Assembly: GCA_052168235.1 (NCBI GenBank)
Contig: JBQLZK010000114.1
Coordinates: forward strand, 1-13,040
DNA length: 13,040 nt
Direction of reading: 5' to 3'
From: Thainema sp.
GTDB taxonomy: Bacteria > Cyanobacteriota > Cyanobacteriia > Phormidesmidales > Phormidesmidaceae
Of this stretch, positions 4,190 to 13,025 are shown in pieces (the stretch's first letter is position 1; every line of letters starts with the position of its first letter). The position numbers and the translations under genes were made by a program. The notes below the pieces were generated by a model. It did no database searches. It saw nothing but the letters and a program-made list of their open reading frames with translations, and had not been told where the DNA came from.

Positions 4190-5800
4190 CTAGTCCATCT
4201 CGCTTTTGGACTGAGAAAAATCCAAGACATCGGGAATCTGCTCGGGGTCTTTAAATGGTTTTGAATCCTGAGTTTGAGCGCTAGCCGCTGGATTGATCGG
4301 CGAGTCAGTTGGAGGCAGAGTGTTCGCTTTCTGCAGGACTTGGTTGATTTGCTCGACCTCATCCAGTGTTTGTTCTGGATTGTCGATACTGCTTTTTTCG
4401 ACGTAGTTAATTTTCAGTTCTTCCAGCAGGTCAATTAACAGCGTTTCAAGTTCTTTCTGCGTTTGTTTTTCCTGAAGCTGCTGCTTCAACGCTTGCCGAA
4501 AGTCTTGGCTGAGCTGCTCCATCAGCATGCGGCCTTCCTGGTCAGAATAAGCATTTTTCAGGACATCATAGGTGCCTTGGGCCAGATACTCGGCTAGCTG
4601 CTCAATGGTTTCGTTGGGCAAATTGCCTATGCCAGGAAACTGCTGCACCGCGCCGTAAAAGTCTGACTGGGTAATGACTTCCGTTAAACTGTGGTGCAAC
4701 AAGGCTTCCAAGTCCGGTTGAACTTCTGGCAAAACTCGGTAAATTGACAGTTGAATCAGCCGATCGGTAATGGCGTCGATTTTATTAATATTGCTGACCT
4801 GCCGATATTGACTGGGTTCAAACAAGAATCGTGCCGCATCTCCTTGTTCAATAGAAGTCTGCGCCTGGTTAACGAGTCGCACCATGAGAAACTTGCTCAC
4901 CCGATCGGCAACGTAGGAGACGGGTTCGTGGGTCACTTGAGCCAGCACCCGCTCCATATTGAAGAGTCTGGACTGATGGAGCCGTACTGAAACGGGTAAG
5001 ACCCGCAGCCAGCGCCAATACGGCAGGAAGAAAATCAGGTCATACCAGCGGCGTAAAATAGCATCACCCCAGCTCACTTGAGGCTGACGATAGCTGCTGA
5101 TTAGAGTGCGTCCTAGTAGATCAACGGCAAACAGCGCCATGAACCAGAGATCAATCTGCCAAAACCGATCAGCGAATCGTCCCGTTTCGTCCAACATTCG
5201 CAGATAGTTGTGCTCCAGCATGGGGCGAATGGCGCGATCGAAGTAAGTCAGCTCGCTTTGCCAACCTGCTCGATTCAGATAGTCCCAACTCCAGAATTTC
5301 AGCAGTGCTTGCTTCGCTGAGATTTCACCTACGTGGGACTGGATACGCTGTTTGAGCTTAGCGTACGCACCAAACTGATTGGCTCCAAAAAAGGGATTTT
5401 CTTCTACTAACTCGATGCTTTGGGCCTGCAGATTACTAAGAATAGGCGCAATCTCCGCTGGTTGAGGCGCAAGTTGTAGAGATTGCATGTTTCCCACTTC
5501 ATGATTTGGATTAACCGTTTCAACTAGCTGATCAACAGTCGCCAAATAAAGCTGTGTATCCGGATGCAGTTCGATGCCCTTGATGGGATCGTAGGCATCT
5601 ACGACTGCGGGTGTGTACTCAAAATAAAGCGATCGCAGCGGAATATAGCTGATATTGAACAGCACCAAAACGAGCTGAATGACAGCAATAAGCGCGACAA
5701 GCTTGCTCCAAACTTGGCCAATGTGCTGCCACACGGTAGGTTGACTGGCAGAATGAGACGTACTGCGGTAAGTAGGAGTTGAAGAAGTCGAAGACTGCAT
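4190..5800 (-). CDS. Conserved hypothetical membrane protein with an ion-transport/voltage-sensor-like S2-S4 segment and a long helical C-terminal region
   Basis: Long ORF (the track opens it at 5839; the first ATG is at 5800, giving 536 aa). It has an N-terminal TM (WSKLVALIAVIQLVLVLFNISYI), then IDLWFMALFAVDLLGR, RWYDLIFFLP and RWLRVLPVSVRLHQSR. The start choice is uncertain. Confidence 0.8.
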   Translation of the reverse strand: MQSSTSSTPTYRSTSHSASQPTVWQHIGQVWSKLVALIAVIQLVLVLFNISYIPLRSLYFEYTPAVVDAYDPIKGIELHPDTQLYLATVDQLVETVNPNHEVGNMQSLQLAPQPAEIAPILSNLQAQSIELVEENPFFGANQFGAYAKLKQRIQSHVGEISAKQALLKFWSWDYLNRAGWQSELTYFDRAIRPMLEHNYLRMLDETGRFADRFWQIDLWFMALFAVDLLGRTLISSYRQPQVSWGDAILRRWYDLIFFLPYWRWLRVLPVSVRLHQSRLFNMERVLAQVTHEPVSYVADRVSKFLMVRLVNQAQTSIEQGDAARFLFEPSQYRQVSNINKIDAITDRLIQLSIYRVLPEVQPDLEALLHHSLTEVITQSDFYGAVQQFPGIGNLPNETIEQLAEYLAQGTYDVLKNAYSDQEGRMLMEQLSQDFRQALKQQLQEKQTQKELETLLIDLLEELKINYVEKSSIDNPEQTLDEVEQINQVLQKANTLPPTDSPINPAASAQTQDSKPFKDPEQIPDVLDFSQSKSEMD

Positions 5801-6042
5801 GCGATCGCGAATGGACAACCAGATGAGCAAGGTGCTCAAAAACTAGCTGCGATTCTATCGCTGCCGTTCCAAGAATACACGTATCTTAGGACTGAACTTG
5901 GCGGCGGTTTGCTATCTGGAAACCTCTCACTGTTGATCTGCTTGTGTTAAAACCTTCTCTCGCGCGATTGACGCATTTTCCCAGTGTCCCAACTAATGTA
6001 TAGGCAGATTCTGACGTGAAATGACAAGGCTAGATTCAAATA

Positions 6043-6462: not shown

Positions 6463-7212
6463 TTGATTATTCATCGTGTTGGATATTATTGGCTTGTTTT
6501 TCTAGCATTCATTCTAGGTCGCTATTTCCTCGTCGCTGGCGGGGCATTTTGGTTGTTTTATGTTTCTGACAAAATGCCTTTGCTCAAACGTATCGCCGTA
6601 CCAAAACCAAAGTGGAAACTCATTCGCCAAGATATTAGCTTATCCGTAACATCTGCTTTTCTATTTGCGCTTTTATCGGCTCTAATTATGAGCATTTATA
6701 ACGCTGGTGGCACTCGTATCTATAGCTCTATTGATACCTACGGCTGGTGGTACATGGGGTTCAGTTTTTGTGCCGTTTTAATTTTACAGGACACTTATTT
6801 TTATTTTACTCATCGGCTGCTGCATCATCCTCGCCTATTCAAATGGATGCACTATGGGCATCATCGTTCCCGCGTACCAACTCCTTGGACATCATTTGCG
6901 TTTGAACCCAGTGAGGCAATGATTCACGGCATCTTTTTTGTCAGTTTGGTGTTTTTCATCCCGCTCCATTTTGCGACTCTGATTGCGGCATTTGTCACAA
7001 TGACAATCTGGGCAATGATCACTCATTTAGGCTTTGAATTGGTTCCACCCCACTTTTCAGTAGCTGGATTACAAAAAGGACTGATTGGCCCAGTGCATCA
7101 CGCTATTCATCACCGTCGGTATCAAACGCATTTTGGGTTGTATTTCACCTTTTGGGATCGCGTACTGGGCACAACCGATCCCGCATACATCGAAAAATAT
7201 GTGAACAAATAG
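6463..7212 (+). CDS. Sterol desaturase family protein (fatty acid hydroxylase superfamily, membrane His-box diiron enzyme)
   Basis: 249 aa with a TTG start. His boxes DTYFYFTHRLLH, MHYGHH and HHAIHH, plus PTPWTSFAF and FGLYFTFWDRVLGT typical of the ERG3/ERG25-like family; several TM segments. Confidence 0.92.
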   Translation: MIIHRVGYYWLVFLAFILGRYFLVAGGAFWLFYVSDKMPLLKRIAVPKPKWKLIRQDISLSVTSAFLFALLSALIMSIYNAGGTRIYSSIDTYGWWYMGFSFCAVLILQDTYFYFTHRLLHHPRLFKWMHYGHHRSRVPTPWTSFAFEPSEAMIHGIFFVSLVFFIPLHFATLIAAFVTMTIWAMITHLGFELVPPHFSVAGLQKGLIGPVHHAIHHRRYQTHFGLYFTFWDRVLGTTDPAYIEKYVNK

Positions 7213-7218
7213 CGCCAG

Positions 7219-7965
7219 TTATTGAACTTTGCCAAATCTGCGATCGCGGTTTTGAAATGCTGTCAGTGCCTTTTGAAATTCGCTGCGATCAAAGTCAGGC
7301 CAGAGGGCATCGGTCACATAAATTTCGGCGTAGGCCATTTGCCACAGGAGAAAGTTGCTCAAGCGCATTTCGCCACTGGTGCGAATCAGCAAGTCGGGAT
7401 CGGGCAAATTGGCGGTATAAAGCTGCTGAGCGAATAGGTCATCATTAATTGCGCTGGGATCAAGCTGGCCTTGCTGTACCTGAGTTGCGATATCGCGGCA
7501 GGCTTTGATGATTTCGGCTCGTCCGCCGTAGTTCATCGCCACCGTAAACTGTACGGCGTTGTTGTTGGCAGTAGCCAACATCGCTCGCTGAGCTTCCACC
7601 TGAAGCTGTTCCGGCAGGCTGGAGATATCACCCGCAAACGAAATGCGAACGCCTTCTTCGTTCATCTCTTGCAGCTCTTTTCGTAGCAGTCGTTCGAACA
7701 GCCCCATTAGAAAACTGACTTCTTCCAGCGGTCGCCGCCAGTTTTCGGTTGAAAATGCATACACAGTTAAGGCTGGGATGCCCCAGTCCTTGCAGCAGCG
7801 CAGCAAGTCCTTCAGCGTATTGGCTCCCTGGCGATGCCCAGCGATGCGGGGTAGTCCTCGCTGCTGCGCCCAGCGACCATTGCCGTCCATAATCACCGCG
7901 ACGTGCTGCGGCAACCGCTGGCGATCAAGTTCGGCGGGCAGTTTAACTAAGAGCTTGGCAGTCAT
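7219..7965 (-). CDS. uppS: Isoprenyl transferase / cis-prenyltransferase (undecaprenyl-diphosphate synthase family), probably a paralogous copy
   Basis: Motifs [54 protein letters not shown] and RDRRFG. The ATG at 7965 (MTAKLL..., 248 aa) is preferred over 8043 because GGAGA lies 7 nt upstream of it. Confidence 0.93.
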
Positions 7966-8138
7966 CGGTGATTCTCCCGAAAGCAACGAAAAAACAGGTT
8001 TGTGAAACCATTTGGCGGTAGCGCTTCTATTAAAGGTGCCCATTTTGCCCCGGTTAAGCGCAAGACCGAAATGCAGGATTTTGGCAAAACTTTAAGTTCT
8101 GTGTCTGGATTTTACGGTTGGTGTTAAGGGGGAGGGGT

Positions 8139-8178
8139 GGTAGGAGAGTAGATGGGTAGGAGAGTAGATGGGTGGATG
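8139..8178. repeat. Short tandem repeat (STRR-like): (GGTAGGAGAGTAGATG)x2 plus GGTGGATG, built from degenerate octamers
   Basis: Exact 16-bp copies at 8139-8154 and 8155-8170 in a purine-rich intergenic tract between the ferritin-like gene and uppS. Confidence 0.85.
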
Positions 8179-8252
8179 GGTTGTTGCGAAAAGTGCATGA
8201 TCGTAAGGTTCATTCGCGCAGCAATACACTACGCCGGGAGGACTGTAAAGAT

Positions 8253-9230
8253 CTAGCTGTCGCCGAACAGCGATCGCAACTCCTCCACCCGCATTGCCCT
8301 CTGCCATTGGCGTACCCGATTCAGCACCCAAATGAATGTCAGCGCTAGCTCTAGCTTGTGTTGCAGCTTCCAGTCGTGCCAGTGAAGAGTTCCCATCATC
8401 CGCTGGACGGTGCGATAGAGCTTCAGCAGGGACAGCGTTTTTTGCTGGCCGTAGCGGGTATCGACGATGCGATTGCCGAGGAGTCGCCAGCAGCGCTGCC
8501 AGAACGATTCGGGGTAGAGCCAGAGGCCGAATCCCCAGAATTTGGTCATGTGGTTGACTTCGTCGATTAGGATTTCGGTCAGGAGCTGATGCGTTGCGCC
8601 CGTGGTGTGCGCCATCAGCCACAGGTATAGACAGACGGCACTGTATTCCGTGGCGATGCGATGTAGACCGTGGCCATAGAGATCATCGGCAGGATGCTCG
8701 GATGACTCATAGGATTTGGCTTGGCGGAGATTGGCTACGATTTTTTCGCCCTTGAGCTGATAGTAAAGTTTGGCTAGGGCTGGGCTATGCTGCCGCTCTT
8801 CTCTTTCCCACAGTCCTAGTTCTACTAAGTCACCTTGCTCATTGACTGTACCGCCGACAAAACGGGCCATTTCAGGATGGAGCGGTTCTAGATACTGCCG
8901 ACTGGTTTGGGTATAGCCGCGAATGGGTGCTTCGGTATCCATTGCGCCCACGATAACGTTGAGGAACAGATCCAGGTCAATGTCAATTACCTGACTGGGA
9001 TGAATCTCATCCCAGCGAATTGGTTGCCAGGGTCGCGGTTGGGGATTGGCAAACTGTCGCGGTAGATCGGCCAAGCGATCGCATAAAACATCAAGGCTGA
9101 CGTAGTGGTCAATGTGCGATCGCAGCTTGGCGCAGGTCTGTCGAAACAAAGTTGGTTGCTCGGCTTGCTTTTCAGTTTGGTCAGAGTCTTGAACAGGAAC
9201 TTGAATAGAATTAATCGATAGAAAATTCAT
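8253..9230 (-). CDS. Ferritin-like diiron-carboxylate protein (acyl-ACP-desaturase-like ligand pattern)
   Basis: The pattern E...ExxH...E...ExxH appears as DTEAPI, WEREERQH, ATEYSA and DEVNH, comparable to WTAEENRH/DEKRH of soluble acyl-ACP desaturases. The ATG at 9230 has AAGGAG 10 nt upstream (325 aa); the track start at 9281 is an alternative. Confidence 0.82.
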   Translation of the reverse strand: MNFLSINSIQVPVQDSDQTEKQAEQPTLFRQTCAKLRSHIDHYVSLDVLCDRLADLPRQFANPQPRPWQPIRWDEIHPSQVIDIDLDLFLNVIVGAMDTEAPIRGYTQTSRQYLEPLHPEMARFVGGTVNEQGDLVELGLWEREERQHSPALAKLYYQLKGEKIVANLRQAKSYESSEHPADDLYGHGLHRIATEYSAVCLYLWLMAHTTGATHQLLTEILIDEVNHMTKFWGFGLWLYPESFWQRCWRLLGNRIVDTRYGQQKTLSLLKLYRTVQRMMGTLHWHDWKLQHKLELALTFIWVLNRVRQWQRAMRVEELRSLFGDS

Positions 9231-9303
9231 CAATACTGCACTCCTTATAAAAAGGGGCATGGTATGCCATGCCCGGTGCATTCAGGTGTTTTCGTTCATC
9301 CCC

Positions 9304-9438
9304 AACTTACGAAATTCGGCTCGTGGTGTCAGTCGGTTTGAGTCGGAGGTTCGCAGTTTTCCAAACGTCGGCAGAACGTCGGAAAAGGTCGGATTCAGTC
9401 GCCAATGTCGGGACAAGGTAGTGATCATGAGTTAAGCT
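9304..9438. promoter_or_regulatory. Divergent promoter region with a phased GTCGG (CCGAC) direct-repeat array flanked by two -10-like hexamers
   Basis: GTCGG occurs at 9332, 9342, 9367, 9378, 9388 and 9407, with GTCGC at 9398. TAAGTT lies on the - strand (9309-9304) and TAAGCT on the + strand (9433-9438). The repeats are seen; promoter function is inferred. Confidence 0.7.
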
Positions 9439-9523
9439 TGGTGCAATTTAGGCAGTTATTCGAATTCGCAAGCTTTGACCCTGTAGTTCTCTGAAGCAAA
9501 CATCCACAGTCGTTTTTCACGGG

Positions 9524-12037
9524 ATGGACACTGATTCTGCACTAGCGCTGGTTGATGCTCTGGTGTTTGAAAGCACTGGAGAGCATCTCAACGATTTGAA
9601 AGCTGCCATTTTCCAGCGGGTATGGCAGGGGCAAAAGTATTTAGATATTGCCGCAGACTGTGGCTACACCGAAGGCCACGTCAAGGATATCGGCTCGATT
9701 CTGTGGCGACAGCTTTCTGATGCTCTGGGTGAAAAGGTCACAAAACGCAACTGTCGCTCGGTCTTGAAACGCTACAAATCAGCCCTCAAGCAGCGGCTGG
9801 GTCAAGCGAAACGAGTTACGTCTCAGGCCATCCTGCCGATTACGTCGGGCGCTAAATCTTCACTGATGCCGCTACCGATTAACTCAACGGCTCCAGCAGA
9901 TATTGTGAAAAGTACCGCTAATCGAGGTTTTGTGGGGCGGGAAACTGCGATCGCAGATCTCCATCAGTTGGTCAGCCAGGGAGCTAAACTGATTGTCATT
10001 CAAGGTGAAGGCGGACTAGGCAAGACAACGTTGGCGCAGCAGTTTCTACAGGCGCAGTCGTTCGACCGAGTGCTGGAAGTGCTGATGGCCAAGGAAACTG
10101 ACGCTATCACCTCGGCCCATCGAGTGGTGGAAGAATGGCTGCGACAGGATTTTGACGAGGAACCAGGACAGGAGTTTGGCGTTACCCTCAGTCGGCTCAA
10201 GCGCCAGCTTCAGCAGCAGCGAGTCGGCATCCTAATTGATAACCTCGAACCGGCACTGGATGCGAACGGCTGCTTTGTACCGCAGCATCGCGGCTACGCT
10301 GAACTGCTGAGGATTCTGGCCGATCCGCAAGTGCAGGCGGTGACGTTGATTACCAGTCGCGATCGCATTTGTGAATCGGGCGTTGATCTACACCACTATC
10401 GACTGCCGGGGCTGGATTTGAGCGCTTGGCAACAGTATTTTCAATACCCTTCAGTACCTTCCGGTGAAGCAGGAAGCGTTCTTGCCGCTATGCACCAAGC
10501 TTATGCGGGAAATGCGAAGGCGATGGGTGTGCTGTATGGCTTGATTCAAGAGGATTTTGCAGGTGATATTGCGGTTTACTGGCAGGAGTATCAGGGCAGT
10601 CCGTTAGCCCATACGACGTTGCAGAACTTGGTGGTGAGCCAGATCGAGCGGCTCCTGTCTCTTGATCCAGGGGCTTATCAGCTCCTCTGTCGGCTAGGCT
10701 GCTATCGCTATCAGGAGACGCCGACTGTGCCTACGGCTGGGTTAAAGGCATTGATGTGGGATGTCGATCTGCACCAACAGCCGCGAGTAATTCAATCCTT
10801 ACGCAATCGCTCGTTGATTGAGTGCTACAAAGGCCAATACTGGCTGCATCCGGCGATTCACGCAGCAGCAGTTACGCGATTACGTGACGGTGCTGATTAC
10901 GAAGCAGCCCATCGTCGAGCCGCCGCGTTTTGGAGTCAATCGGTGCAGCGCATTCAGTCGGTGCGGGATGCGCTGCAAGCACTGGAAGCTTATTACCACC
11001 ATGTTGCGATTCAGGATTTTGAAGCTGCTGCTGCCGTATTACTCCGCAGTCGCTTGAATCAGTGGCAGCAGTTCTTGCCGCTGGGCAGTACCCTTTACCG
11101 GATGGGCTTTCTGCATCCCGTGGTGGATGCCATTGAGCAGGTGTTGCCCCATCTGCAAGCGACGCCGAATCAGGCAGAACTCTGCAATATTCTAGGCGAC
11201 TTGTACTGGATTACAGGCTGCATTACAGAAGCGATTCAGCAACAGCAACATGCGATCGCAACGGCTAAAACCTGTCTACAAAATGCCGCCAATGATCATC
11301 AGATTTACTACTTAACAATGATAGCTGTGGATTCGCAGCTCAGTATTGGTCTATATTGTGTCGATCGATGGGATTTGGCAACCGCGCAGCAGTATTTTCA
11401 AACGGTGATCGATCAGGCAACTTGTACGCCTCATCATCCCTGGGCTGAGAAAGCATCGGTTTGCCTTGCCCTGGTTTATACACACCAACAGCAGTTCGAG
11501 CAGGCGAAACCGTTGACTGATGAAGTTTATAGCCGAATTGCTAGCAGTCCATTGACAGATTGCAGCGGGCGCTTTGCCTACTTCATCCAGATGCTGGCTC
11601 AGGTTTATAGTTACTTAGGCGAATATAACCAGGCTCAAGAACTTTACGATAGTGCGATCGCCGCCGCCACTGAAAGCCACTATCTCCAGGTCAGAGGCCA
11701 AGCCCTAAACGGATTAGCGGTATTGCATCGTCTTCAGGGGAATTGCGATCGCGCATTAGCCCATCATGCCGAGGCGGTTGAAATCTTAGAAATGATCGAT
11801 GCCAAGTGTGATTTAGCCAATGCGCTGTTTCAACAAGGGATTACCTATAAAACTCAGGGAAATCTCTCTCAAGCACTGCAGAATGTTGGGCGTGCCATCC
11901 AGCTTTTCCGCGCAATTGATGCACCAAATCAAGTGCAGCGGGTGCAGTATCAATTTGATTGCCATACCAGTTCCCTAAACTGTGACTACTCATCAAGCTC
12001 TCTTACCCAGCACCTAACGCAATCAGTATCTAAATGA
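9524..12037 (+). CDS. STAND-class NTPase: N-terminal HTH-like domain + NB-ARC-like ATPase + C-terminal TPR repeats; probable signal-transducing transcriptional regulator
   Basis: 837 aa. The N-terminal ~80 aa (HLNDL...WQGQKYLDIA...GYTEGHVKDIGSILWRQLSDALGEKVTKRN) match the HTH-like module common on cyanobacterial NB-ARC proteins. FVGRE, Walker A GEGGLGKT, Walker B ILIDNLE, sensor LITSR and MHD-equivalent YWLHP follow, then TPR-like repeats (e.g. ALNGLAVLHRLQGNCDRALAHHAEAVEI). Confidence 0.88.
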   Translation: MDTDSALALVDALVFESTGEHLNDLKAAIFQRVWQGQKYLDIAADCGYTEGHVKDIGSILWRQLSDALGEKVTKRNCRSVLKRYKSALKQRLGQAKRVTSQAILPITSGAKSSLMPLPINSTAPADIVKSTANRGFVGRETAIADLHQLVSQGAKLIVIQGEGGLGKTTLAQQFLQAQSFDRVLEVLMAKETDAITSAHRVVEEWLRQDFDEEPGQEFGVTLSRLKRQLQQQRVGILIDNLEPALDANGCFVPQHRGYAELLRILADPQVQAVTLITSRDRICESGVDLHHYRLPGLDLSAWQQYFQYPSVPSGEAGSVLAAMHQAYAGNAKAMGVLYGLIQEDFAGDIAVYWQEYQGSPLAHTTLQNLVVSQIERLLSLDPGAYQLLCRLGCYRYQETPTVPTAGLKALMWDVDLHQQPRVIQSLRNRSLIECYKGQYWLHPAIHAAAVTRLRDGADYEAAHRRAAAFWSQSVQRIQSVRDALQALEAYYHHVAIQDFEAAAAVLLRSRLNQWQQFLPLGSTLYRMGFLHPVVDAIEQVLPHLQATPNQAELCNILGDLYWITGCITEAIQQQQHAIATAKTCLQNAANDHQIYYLTMIAVDSQLSIGLYCVDRWDLATAQQYFQTVIDQATCTPHHPWAEKASVCLALVYTHQQQFEQAKPLTDEVYSRIASSPLTDCSGRFAYFIQMLAQVYSYLGEYNQAQELYDSAIAAATESHYLQVRGQALNGLAVLHRLQGNCDRALAHHAEAVEILEMIDAKCDLANALFQQGITYKTQGNLSQALQNVGRAIQLFRAIDAPNQVQRVQYQFDCHTSSLNCDYSSSSLTQHLTQSVSK

Positions 12038-12086: not shown

Positions 12087-12152
12087 GAGCCTATCCGGAA
12101 ACCCTCTCAAACCCCTATGTGTCGTGGCCAAATCGGGGTTTCGGATAGGTTC
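12087..12152. mobile_element. 66-bp MITE-like / IS-end remnant with ~17-bp imperfect terminal inverted repeats
   Basis: GAGCCTATCCGGAAACCC (12087-12104) versus the reverse complement of 12136-12152, GAACCTATCCGAAACCC (one mismatch, one indel). The 31-bp interior is non-palindromic and no transposase is present. Confidence 0.55.
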
Positions 12153-12320
12153 TTAGTGCCATTGTCAGTGGAGTAGTCAAACATACCCACACCTCGATTT
12201 TGCGGATGACTGGAGTGTTGGTAGCATTTTGCTAACGCTGTTTCTCAAGGACACCCTCTAGGAAGGGGTGTTATGAATCGGAGGCATAGCAACGCACGAT
12301 CTTGTCACCAATGAATTCTT

Positions 12321-12475
12321 TTGGGTGTTGCTTTGAAATTGCTTGGCGAACTGGTGTTTGCTCTCTTCGAATTAATACTAAAATAGCAGGCTGCTTGGGC
12401 TTGCCGATGTAGAGAAGCCCCTAGTGCTAAGTAACTATAGATCCAGTATTCACGGACATCCGTGGCTTCGTACAA
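12321..12475 (-). pseudogene. Frameshifted C-terminal fragment of a Uma2 (DUF820) family endonuclease gene
   Basis: Three consecutive minus-strand frames give LYEATDVREYWIYSYLALG / YIGKPKQPAILV / FEESKHQFAKQFQSNTQ. This matches, from memory, the cyanobacterial Uma2 C-terminal pattern YE..G..EYWIVDYL.LG....IG.PKQP...VY.L.EGEY....QF.G. Confidence 0.72.
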
Positions 12476-12557
12476 AGAATTTAAACCTATTTGTGCTTTG
12501 AAGTTCAAACAGAGCTATGTTGAGCTTATCTATCTAAGAATTACCATTAGTTCTGAC

Positions 12558-13025
12558 ATGAGGAATTATCGCTTACTACGTCGTGTTATCTTCGTGGTCG
12601 TTGGAACCTTGCTATTTGAACTATATACTGGCGAACCTGCCAGGGCACAGCAAGATTTCTATATTGGTTTTGCACAAGTACCAACATCTAATCCTGGAAT
12701 TAGCAGCGAAGATGATGAAACTTCTCCACTCGAAGATATGGAGTCTGGCACACTCCAAGACTCTTCTCTCAATGAAACTTTACCTTCGGAAACTGAAATA
12801 GTCAGTACTGACGTTCTTGAAATGAAACGCTGGGATGTTTTAACGACTTTCATTGTAACGCTACCAGCGATCATTTCGGCTCTCACTGGTTTAGTAGCTA
12901 CGATACAGGTTCGAAAATTTTTGAGCAATACCGAAGGTGAAGAATCTAATGGTCAGATTCAATGGCAGTTATTAATTGCTGTAGGTTTTGTAATTGCTCA
13001 ACCCAGTAGCCAATCGGACTGCTGA
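12558..13025 (+). CDS. Hypothetical exported/membrane protein (signal peptide, acidic linker, 1-2 TM helices); possibly C-terminally truncated
   Basis: The ATG at 12558 gives MRNYRLLRRVIFVVVGTLLFELYTGEPARA-QQ (basic, hydrophobic, AxA). A D/E/S-rich stretch follows, then TM VLTTFIVTLPAIISALTGLVATIQV + RK; 155 aa. The track start at 12462 is GTG and overlaps the Uma2 remnant. Confidence 0.6.
   Translation: MRNYRLLRRVIFVVVGTLLFELYTGEPARAQQDFYIGFAQVPTSNPGISSEDDETSPLEDMESGTLQDSSLNETLPSETEIVSTDVLEMKRWDVLTTFIVTLPAIISALTGLVATIQVRKFLSNTEGEESNGQIQWQLLIAVGFVIAQPSSQSDC

Follow-up and report, generated by a model that had tools for sequence, protein, structure and literature searches.

Contig C114 of Thainema sp. 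(JBQLZK010000114.1, assembly GCA_052168235.1; genome 7.5 Mb) was analysed over its entire length of 13,040 nucleotides, which we call the window. We show herein that three adjacent genes in the window, coding for a STAND protein with an N-terminal helix-turn-helix (HTH) domain and C-terminal tetratricopeptide repeats (TPR), a diiron-carboxylate protein and a second cis-prenyltransferase (uppS2), form a conserved unit across several cyanobacterial families, and that an array of short direct repeats between the first two follows the STAND family and not the enzymes. Probably, though far from securely, the STAND protein is a signal-gated activator that binds these phased repeats and induces spare carrier-lipid synthesis and a lipid oxidase during envelope remodelling. 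The features concerned are as follows.

9524..12037, + strand: HTH(PF26355)-STAND(NB-ARC)-TPR gene, putative transcriptional activator; Walker A 163-168, Walker B D239/N240, R279, WLHP 440-443.
9332..9411, - strand: six CCGAC repeats, putative operator; GTCGG on the + strand at 9332, 9342, 9367, 9378, 9388 and 9407, roughly in a 10-11 bp phase.
9304..9332, - strand: predicted sigma-70-type promoter; CTGACA 9332-9327, 17 nt, TAAGTT 9309-9304; the final CCGAC overlaps the -35 hexamer.
8253..9230, - strand: diiron-carboxylate gene with a large R2/desaturase-like ferritin fold; likely 325 amino acids from M18; open reading frame (ORF) to 9281.
7219..7965, - strand: uppS2, second cis-prenyltransferase; likely start M27 at 7965; ORF to 8043; catalytic residues intact.
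6463..7212, + strand: PF04116 His-box hydroxylase/desaturase gene, 249 amino acids, PF04116 over cut-off; a genuine gene and local neighbour outside the module.
8386..8394, - strand: GGGAACTCT within the diiron gene, SigJ J-box-like; a possible, weak internal uppS2 promoter.

ORF listing and profile scans place all four ORFs where a sequence-only reading had put them and in the same orientation, with 6 bp between the convergent stops of the desaturase gene (6463-7212, +) and uppS2 (7219-8043, -). Two starts need correction: that of the diiron ORF is likely M18 (9230), which has AAGGAG ahead of it and a nearest homologue of 325 amino acids, and that of uppS2 is likely M27 (7965).

Diiron-gene loci were gathered from GTDB genomes, and the 56 whose protein is 42% or more identical to that of the window were taken as main loci; duplicates L046, L167 and L147 were removed ahead of the linkage counts, and L046 and L167 ahead of the operator counts. 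A uppS gene lies directly after the diiron gene in 44 of the 51 assessable loci, and a divergent HTH-STAND-TPR gene lies ahead of it in 40/54. The 11 loci of a divergent diiron subfamily gave neither neighbour (uppS 0/11, STAND 0/9). The diiron gene was found in 14/301 genomes sampled across the phylum, and, the own genome aside, the six top STAND matches come from the six genomes with the diiron-uppS pair. Within the own family (61 genomes), 36 of the 37 diiron-positive genomes carry the STAND gene, which is adjacent in 29/37 by a coordinate tally. The sequence-only reading had proposed a module of four linked families; three of them, STAND, diiron gene and uppS, are indeed linked across several families, but the desaturase is present in 2/49 loci, so that linkage of all four was not found.

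The 242 bp between the STAND and diiron genes contain six CCGAC repeats on one strand, part of a strand-specific pattern, CCGAC-N5-CCGAC-TGAC-N17/18-TAnnnT, that was absent from the sequence-only reading. The search pattern C[CA]GAC-N5-C[CA]GAC or C[CA]GACTGAC occurs upstream of 49/54 main diiron genes and of 8/10 uppS2 genes that face a STAND gene without a diiron gene, but of 0/10 divergent diiron genes and 0/37 cdaA controls, and 0 times on the opposite strand; shuffles gave an expectation of at most 0.2. A TAnnnT box follows the CTGACN hexamer at a distance of 17 or 18 nt in 49 of the 50 homologous promoters that were anchored, so that the last repeat overlaps a -35 box. A generic promoter scan missed this predicted CCGAC-overlapping promoter. 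Among the listed own-genome clusters with at least four CCGAC in 90 bp, the window array has the most copies, two of the other five being pentapeptide-repeat coding DNA; the complete operator-promoter pattern was found at two places in the genome, one on C114 and one on C15.

The same array stands before paralogous STAND genes that face unrelated genes (NfeD-type, small proteins; L098, L099 and L104); the G355 row of this promoter comparison covered a stretch picked in error and was disregarded. Moreover, paralogues whose recognition helix reads K-A, K-E, R-E or R-A (not K-D) tend towards C[CA]TAC repeats, at least two of which occur at 7/20 paralogue loci examined; several paralogues have no array. 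Since the repeats travel with STAND paralogues and vary with the helix, they are tied to the PF26355 HTH of the STAND protein, and a helix-to-operator code among paralogous HTH-STAND-TPR proteins is possible. The claim of a dedicated STAND regulator gains from this: an operator-like array so conserved speaks for a dedicated activator, one that would bind the CCGAC repeats. Paralogous HTH-STAND-TPR genes with divergent promoters carrying phased C[CA]GAC or C[CA]TAC repeats were seen at L098, L099, L101, L103-L107, L110, L114, L193 and L195, with NfeD-type, small Cys-rich and membrane proteins as the target genes.

The product of 9524-12037 matches NB-ARC (PF00931, 31.1 bits, cut-off 23.5) and TPR_12, both over cut-off, and G164, G166, K167, T168, D239, R279 and H442 are invariant in 29/29 STAND sequences; it is a STAND (AP-ATPase/NB-ARC) protein. 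Its model is closest in fold to 6mfv, a STAND with a TPR sensor (E 1.8e-12), and also matches Apaf-1 and NLRs. The N-terminal HTH, PF26355, had escaped the sequence-only reading; it is present on 120/120 homologues among the matches listed, and Atlas gave 0.93 for a PF26355-type HTH at residues 1-90 of P0361. Two marks of a STAND activator are found: the chain has an HTH of its own, and the target promoter has direct repeats that run into its -35 box. The 110 nt upstream of the STAND start contain a GTAGNNT or GCTARAKT box in 35/52 cases (5 antisense; window 9474-9482), with CGGAAC about 16 nt ahead of the box at some loci, an arrangement that resembles an extracytoplasmic function (ECF)-sigma promoter.

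The combination of a DNA-binding domain, NB-ARC and C-terminal TPRs is the same in large SARPs (AfsR, PolY, RslR3) and MalT-type STAND activators. MalT carries a C-terminal LuxR HTH. Large SARPs have an OmpR-type/BTAD SARP domain, whereas the STAND protein here has an N-terminal PF26355 HTH; a Pfam match to the SARP domains was not found in it, and the AfsR model NF053617 reached 33 bits against 1430, over the TPR part only. Unlike the large SARP systems, the present one has a CCGAC pentamer at 10 bp, a cyanobacterial host and envelope-type targets. Large SARPs are described in PMC10972967, in the part available, as using direct repeats that overlap the -35 of the target promoter, likewise the arrangement at the CCGAC array. 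By this analogy, an inducer would bind the N-terminal TPRs, ADP/ATP exchange would drive oligomerisation, the HTH domains would occupy the phased CCGAC repeats, and RNA polymerase would be recruited at the overlapping -35. Extra undecaprenyl-type carrier lipid and a predicted lipid-acting diiron oxidase would then be switched on as the envelope is rebuilt. Our guess is that the inducer may be a prenyl-diphosphate or wall-precursor cue, and that the diiron enzyme may desaturate or hydroxylate a membrane lipid or polyprenyl chain.

The enzyme-linked STANDs form one clade (13/29 rows; Shimodaira-Hasegawa-like approximate likelihood-ratio test, SH-aLRT, 100%). Identity over the N-terminal TPRs (506-700) is 0.50 within this clade and 0.28 to paralogues, as compared to 0.64 and 0.55 for the ATPase, and residues found only in the clade include D603, H637, K643 and R683. 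TPRs that are conserved inside the clade and not with paralogues fit a shared inducer. A broader version of the activator reading, which we regard as possible but doubtful, would make the system an NLR-like homeostat of the carrier-lipid pool: the TPRs would sense a prenyl-diphosphate or wall precursor, the protein would assemble on CCGAC, a spare UppS and a carrier-modifying or carrier-recycling diiron enzyme would be made, and the STANDs would be a phylum-wide activator family with helix-readable operators.

The uppS2 product matches PF01255 at 300 bits and TIGR00055 and NF011406 over cut-off, and residues aligning with E. coli D26, N28, R30, R39, H43, S71, N74, R77, R194, R200 and E213, which we take to be the catalytic set, are invariant in 42/42 linked copies; on profile and residues it belongs to the UppS family. 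Two uppS genes are present in the own genome, the housekeeping copy (uppS1) lying in lysA-cdaA-uppS on contig C44. The two share family hidden Markov models (HMMs) and catalytic residues; however, uppS2 is an additional, regulated paralogue that lies apart from lysA-cdaA-uppS and has residues specific to its clade (A68, Q72, A74, L119 and V170), some of the substitutions being near the substrate tunnel. In quick and FastTree trees most uppS2 copies group apart from housekeeping enzymes (SH-aLRT 92; 83 without the window copy). The window's own uppS2 looks mosaic, since its first third is nearer other uppS2 (0.76 vs 0.71) and its last third nearer uppS1 (0.69-0.72 vs 0.61).

In 6/6 genomes of genus g136 (completeness 96-100%) no uppS was found other than the STAND-linked copy, and in 5/5 checked lysA-cdaA is not followed by one; the uppS2 promoter there (L136-L143) retains an altered array and gains J-box-like boxes. 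UppS is described in part of PMC8144471 as providing the C55 carrier for wall synthesis. Thus, enzymes of the uppS2 clade are most likely able to stand in for the housekeeping copy, and the lipid made by uppS2 is most likely the ordinary carrier rather than a special isoprenoid. This bears on the pathway put forward in the sequence-only reading, in which uppS2 would make a polyprenyl chain that the diiron enzyme oxidises to a special lipid or signal, with the STAND protein sensing the product. A tight operon with co-expressed enzymes, the clade-specific residues of both uppS2 and the TPRs, and a distant kinship of the diiron protein with reductase-fused, 2Fe-2S-bearing proteins, as for a true oxidase, would suit such a pathway. 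However, each enzyme persists without the other. The uppS gene is missing 3' of the diiron gene in 7/51 loci, and 3/5 such genomes searched show the housekeeping uppS alone; STAND and operator are kept with uppS2 alone, the diiron gene being absent, in 10 loci. In genus g150 the STAND gene faces uppS2 without a diiron gene while uppS1 is retained (4/4), and in G361 and G363 the operon is split with the operator retained on both halves. Enzymes that are lost or moved independently, each with the operator kept, fit a regulon better than a pathway. Nor was a conserved fourth gene found 3' of uppS2, the downstream genes falling into 16 small clusters and many singletons, and clustering of downstream and neighbouring genes gave no conserved tailoring, export or efflux gene near the unit. 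The special oxidised isoprenoid is therefore weakened, with uppS2 serving as sole uppS in g136 and each enzyme persisting alone, and we consider the linear pathway unlikely.

The diiron protein gave no Pfam or NCBIfam family over cut-off, yet its ligand set (E117, E162-x-x-H165, E212, E241-x-x-H244) is retained in 55 to 58 of 58 aligned homologues. Its model (predicted local distance difference test, pLDDT, 86) has VIA Z scores of 14.4 with 6d9f (root-mean-square deviation 4.2, 235 aligned), 14.2 with 6y2n, 13.9 with R2lox (4hr0) and 11.4 with castor desaturase; in the R2lox, RNR R2 and ADO comparison Z was 12.4-14.4 at 9-12% identity, with the top rows tied. Two ExxH motifs and two additional Glu ligands on a four-helix bundle place it in the ferritin-like diiron-carboxylate superfamily, and the E, ExxH, E, ExxH ligand pattern is common to it and acyl-ACP desaturase, R2lox, RNR R2 and AurF. 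It differs from these in its 9-15% identity and its want of a Pfam family: the acyl-ACP desaturase (PF03405) and AurF (PF11583) HMMs gave no match at E up to 0.1, sequence searches of solved structures found nothing, and Foldseek with the model found nothing at E up to 0.001 (best E 0.087). Look-alikes at the feature level in the Atlas are FA_desaturase_2 and AurF clusters. The diiron protein is a separate, unstudied family. Of the distant relatives scanned, 12/27 have an NAD-binding reductase domain and/or a 2Fe-2S domain, which supports an oxidase; a lipid substrate is suggested by the fold class and the context. The oxidase may be soluble, as the sequence-only reading had it, since no clear transmembrane segment was found (the highest hydropathy over 19 residues is 1.34); its C-terminal helices, however, are amphipathic and rich in basic residues. 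The distant relatives P0191, P0196, P0198 and P0226, two of them named from Bacteriovorax-type bacteria, have N-termini like signal peptides or carry an NAD-binding reductase together with a BFD 2Fe-2S domain as a fusion. Genus g4 (L050-L054) has a divergent diiron subfamily with an AMP-binding ligase gene close by in 4/5 loci; operator, STAND and uppS are absent.

Published expression data are available for Nostoc punctiforme and Anabaena variabilis. G398 encodes the N. punctiforme protein P0040 at 100%, with the start coordinate of Npun_R1953; uppS2 is Npun_R1952. During hormogonium induction over 0-18 h, Npun_R1952 ran through 4, 177, 331, 147 and 58 units and Npun_R1953 through 2, 27, 46, 71 and 44 (PMC6495340, supplement 1); uppS2 is near silent in vegetative filaments at 0 h, and both genes rise 35- to 80-fold in hormogonia in a sigJ-dependent manner, the maxima in the sigJ mutant being 22 and 6. 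According to the same tables, loss of sigC has little effect on Npun_R1952 and a partial effect on Npun_R1953. Both enzyme genes are listed in the supplementary tables together with sigJ-dependent rodA, mreB-D and a second ftsI; the main text of that paper, in the form available, gave 0 matches for Npun_R195 and undecaprenyl. Npun_R1953 is in the sigJ regulon table with no motif assigned, and its listed promoter window begins just downstream of the CCGAC array; it belongs to cluster 15 and Npun_R1952 to cluster 12, a second, unnamed motif being reported for clusters 10 and 11. A passage of PMC12691664 gives Npun_R1952 as a uppS co-expressed with nagB. The N. punctiforme STAND has the accession ACC80850.1; its locus tag was not found in the tables, and Npun_F2218 was rejected as the N. 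punctiforme STAND on gene order.

In A. variabilis, Ava_3455 and Ava_3456 (enzymes) and Ava_3462 (STAND) were assigned by gene order in G378. The two enzyme genes covary (r=0.97 over 27 arrays; PMC4046671, supplement 3), with signals of about 900-1500 in light-grown vegetative cells as against 54-101 in dark-grown ones. In those arrays Ava_3462 and the convergent Ava_3463-3465 (L192 13189-16226) are very high in lysozyme- or cavitation-treated preparations and not in whole filaments; the high Ava_3462 signal (heterocyst and some vegetative preparations) may be an artefact of lysozyme, EDTA or cavitation or of RNA stability, and is not used as evidence. RNA runs X1-X3 (from a single study, in small shares and on contigs only) covered genes and intergenic DNA alike and are uninformative on expression.

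These data bear on an alternative in which a spare, altered UppS and an oxidase that inactivates a compound targeting UppS or the carrier lipid would give inducible resistance, the STAND protein sensing the compound. A sensor, a target copy and an oxidase are a familiar resistance layout, and the unit is patchy, with losses and fragments (genus g28 has it in 54/61 genomes, several copies being truncated) and substitutions near the uppS2 substrate tunnel. However, induction occurs in the hormogonium development of a laboratory culture (tables of PMC6495340) and expression in ordinary light-grown cultures (arrays of PMC4046671), searches against plasmids, phages and Rfam gave no match, and no conserved efflux gene lies nearby. 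We judge this alternative distinctly improbable.

Several points weigh against a STAND activator of the carrier-lipid unit. The 42% identity cut between diiron subfamilies was picked after the data were seen, and related genomes are not independent, so that the linkage and co-occurrence counts describe a pattern and are no test. The window's uppS2 shifts position between trees; three second-copy uppS genes group with uppS2 and have no STAND, diiron gene or operator nearby; and in G234 and G260 the diiron gene and a partial operator remain, but no linked-clade STAND was found. The housekeeping Npun_F5991 also rises about 4-fold in the PMC6495340 tables, and in the PMC4046671 arrays Ava_3462 does not track its proposed targets (r=0.11). 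Lastly, J-box-like boxes lie upstream of uppS2 in 12/12 loci without and 23/44 with a diiron gene, so that SigJ alone could explain uppS2 induction. Antisense matches number 3 in each of these locus classes, and by the loose pattern boxes also lie upstream of uppS1 in 23/42 (14 antisense). uppS2 may therefore have direct SigJ input or its own SigJ promoter; at the position of GGGAACTCT G398 has GGGTACTCT, a likeness which may reflect merely the conserved RMMGTL codons. By contrast, such boxes precede just 2/56 diiron genes, with 9 on the opposite strand, and the sigJ dependence of the diiron gene thus looks indirect, which leaves room for the STAND protein.

A further alternative is that the STAND protein is not an activator at all, being a conflict or anti-phage sensor or a mere linked neighbour, with SigJ or another factor driving the operon. 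sigJ dependence, the J-box-like boxes and a STAND mRNA that does not follow the targets in the arrays would be expected in that case. PF26355 is also named after vWA-MoxR conflict systems, and STANDs of such systems have been proposed to work unlike transcription factors (PMC7159879, in part). However, the repeats accompany STAND paralogues to unrelated targets and vary with the HTH helix, and the diiron gene is all but free of J-like boxes. Matches to known anti-phage STANDs are weak or far under cut-off: the Avs4 profile gave 12.5 bits against 1500, and the best PADLOC match, over TPR only, 24.5 bits, so that no known anti-phage STAND was recognised. A STAND protein that is no activator is improbable, and the signal-gated activator is retained as the preferred reading.

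The desaturase gene had been counted as the fourth member of the module. Its product belongs to PF04116 (92.5 bits, cut-off 31) and has the His boxes HRLLHH 117, HYGHH 130 and HHAIHH 212. Its 2/49 diiron loci are the window and a 93%-identical relative, and it adjoins uppS in 2/20 of its own loci, both in one genus. It is present in 34/61 family genomes, of which 14 also have the diiron gene, fewer than the 20.6 expected. The desaturase gene also has a lower G+C content at third codon positions (GC3), 0.42 vs 0.58-0.60. Linkage, co-occurrence below expectation and GC3 rule it out as a module member; it is a bystander.

Elsewhere in the window, a 16-bp tandem repeat of 2.2 copies (8139-8173) lies between the diiron gene and uppS2. 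A short palindromic element 3' of the STAND gene (12088-12157) matches many other contigs at high depth and is probably a dispersed repeat. The ORFs at 4190-5839 and 12462-13025 have no Pfam or NCBIfam match; the former has a 33%-identical paralogue on contig C5.

Apart from one passing mention of a locus tag, no description of the module, the operator or the diiron family was found in the open literature, subscription journals being mostly outside it. The unit is not described in the available parts of PMC7159879 and PMC11119718; a 'SigR/SigL' NB-ARC entry in the latter has a different accession and is set apart by accession alone.

The array provides a concrete predicted DNA target for the uncharacterised PF26355 HTH, and members of a large cyanobacterial STAND family (44/301 sampled genomes) would become transcription factors that can be tested against predicted operators. 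The analysis also points to a new family of diiron enzymes. Named homologues exist in two strains open to genetics, N. punctiforme ATCC 29133 and A. variabilis ATCC 29413. A promoter that rises from about 4 to about 330 units in the hormogonium tables could serve as a switch. For filamentous cyanobacteria, the unit suggests a route by which carrier-lipid supply may be raised while the envelope is being rebuilt.

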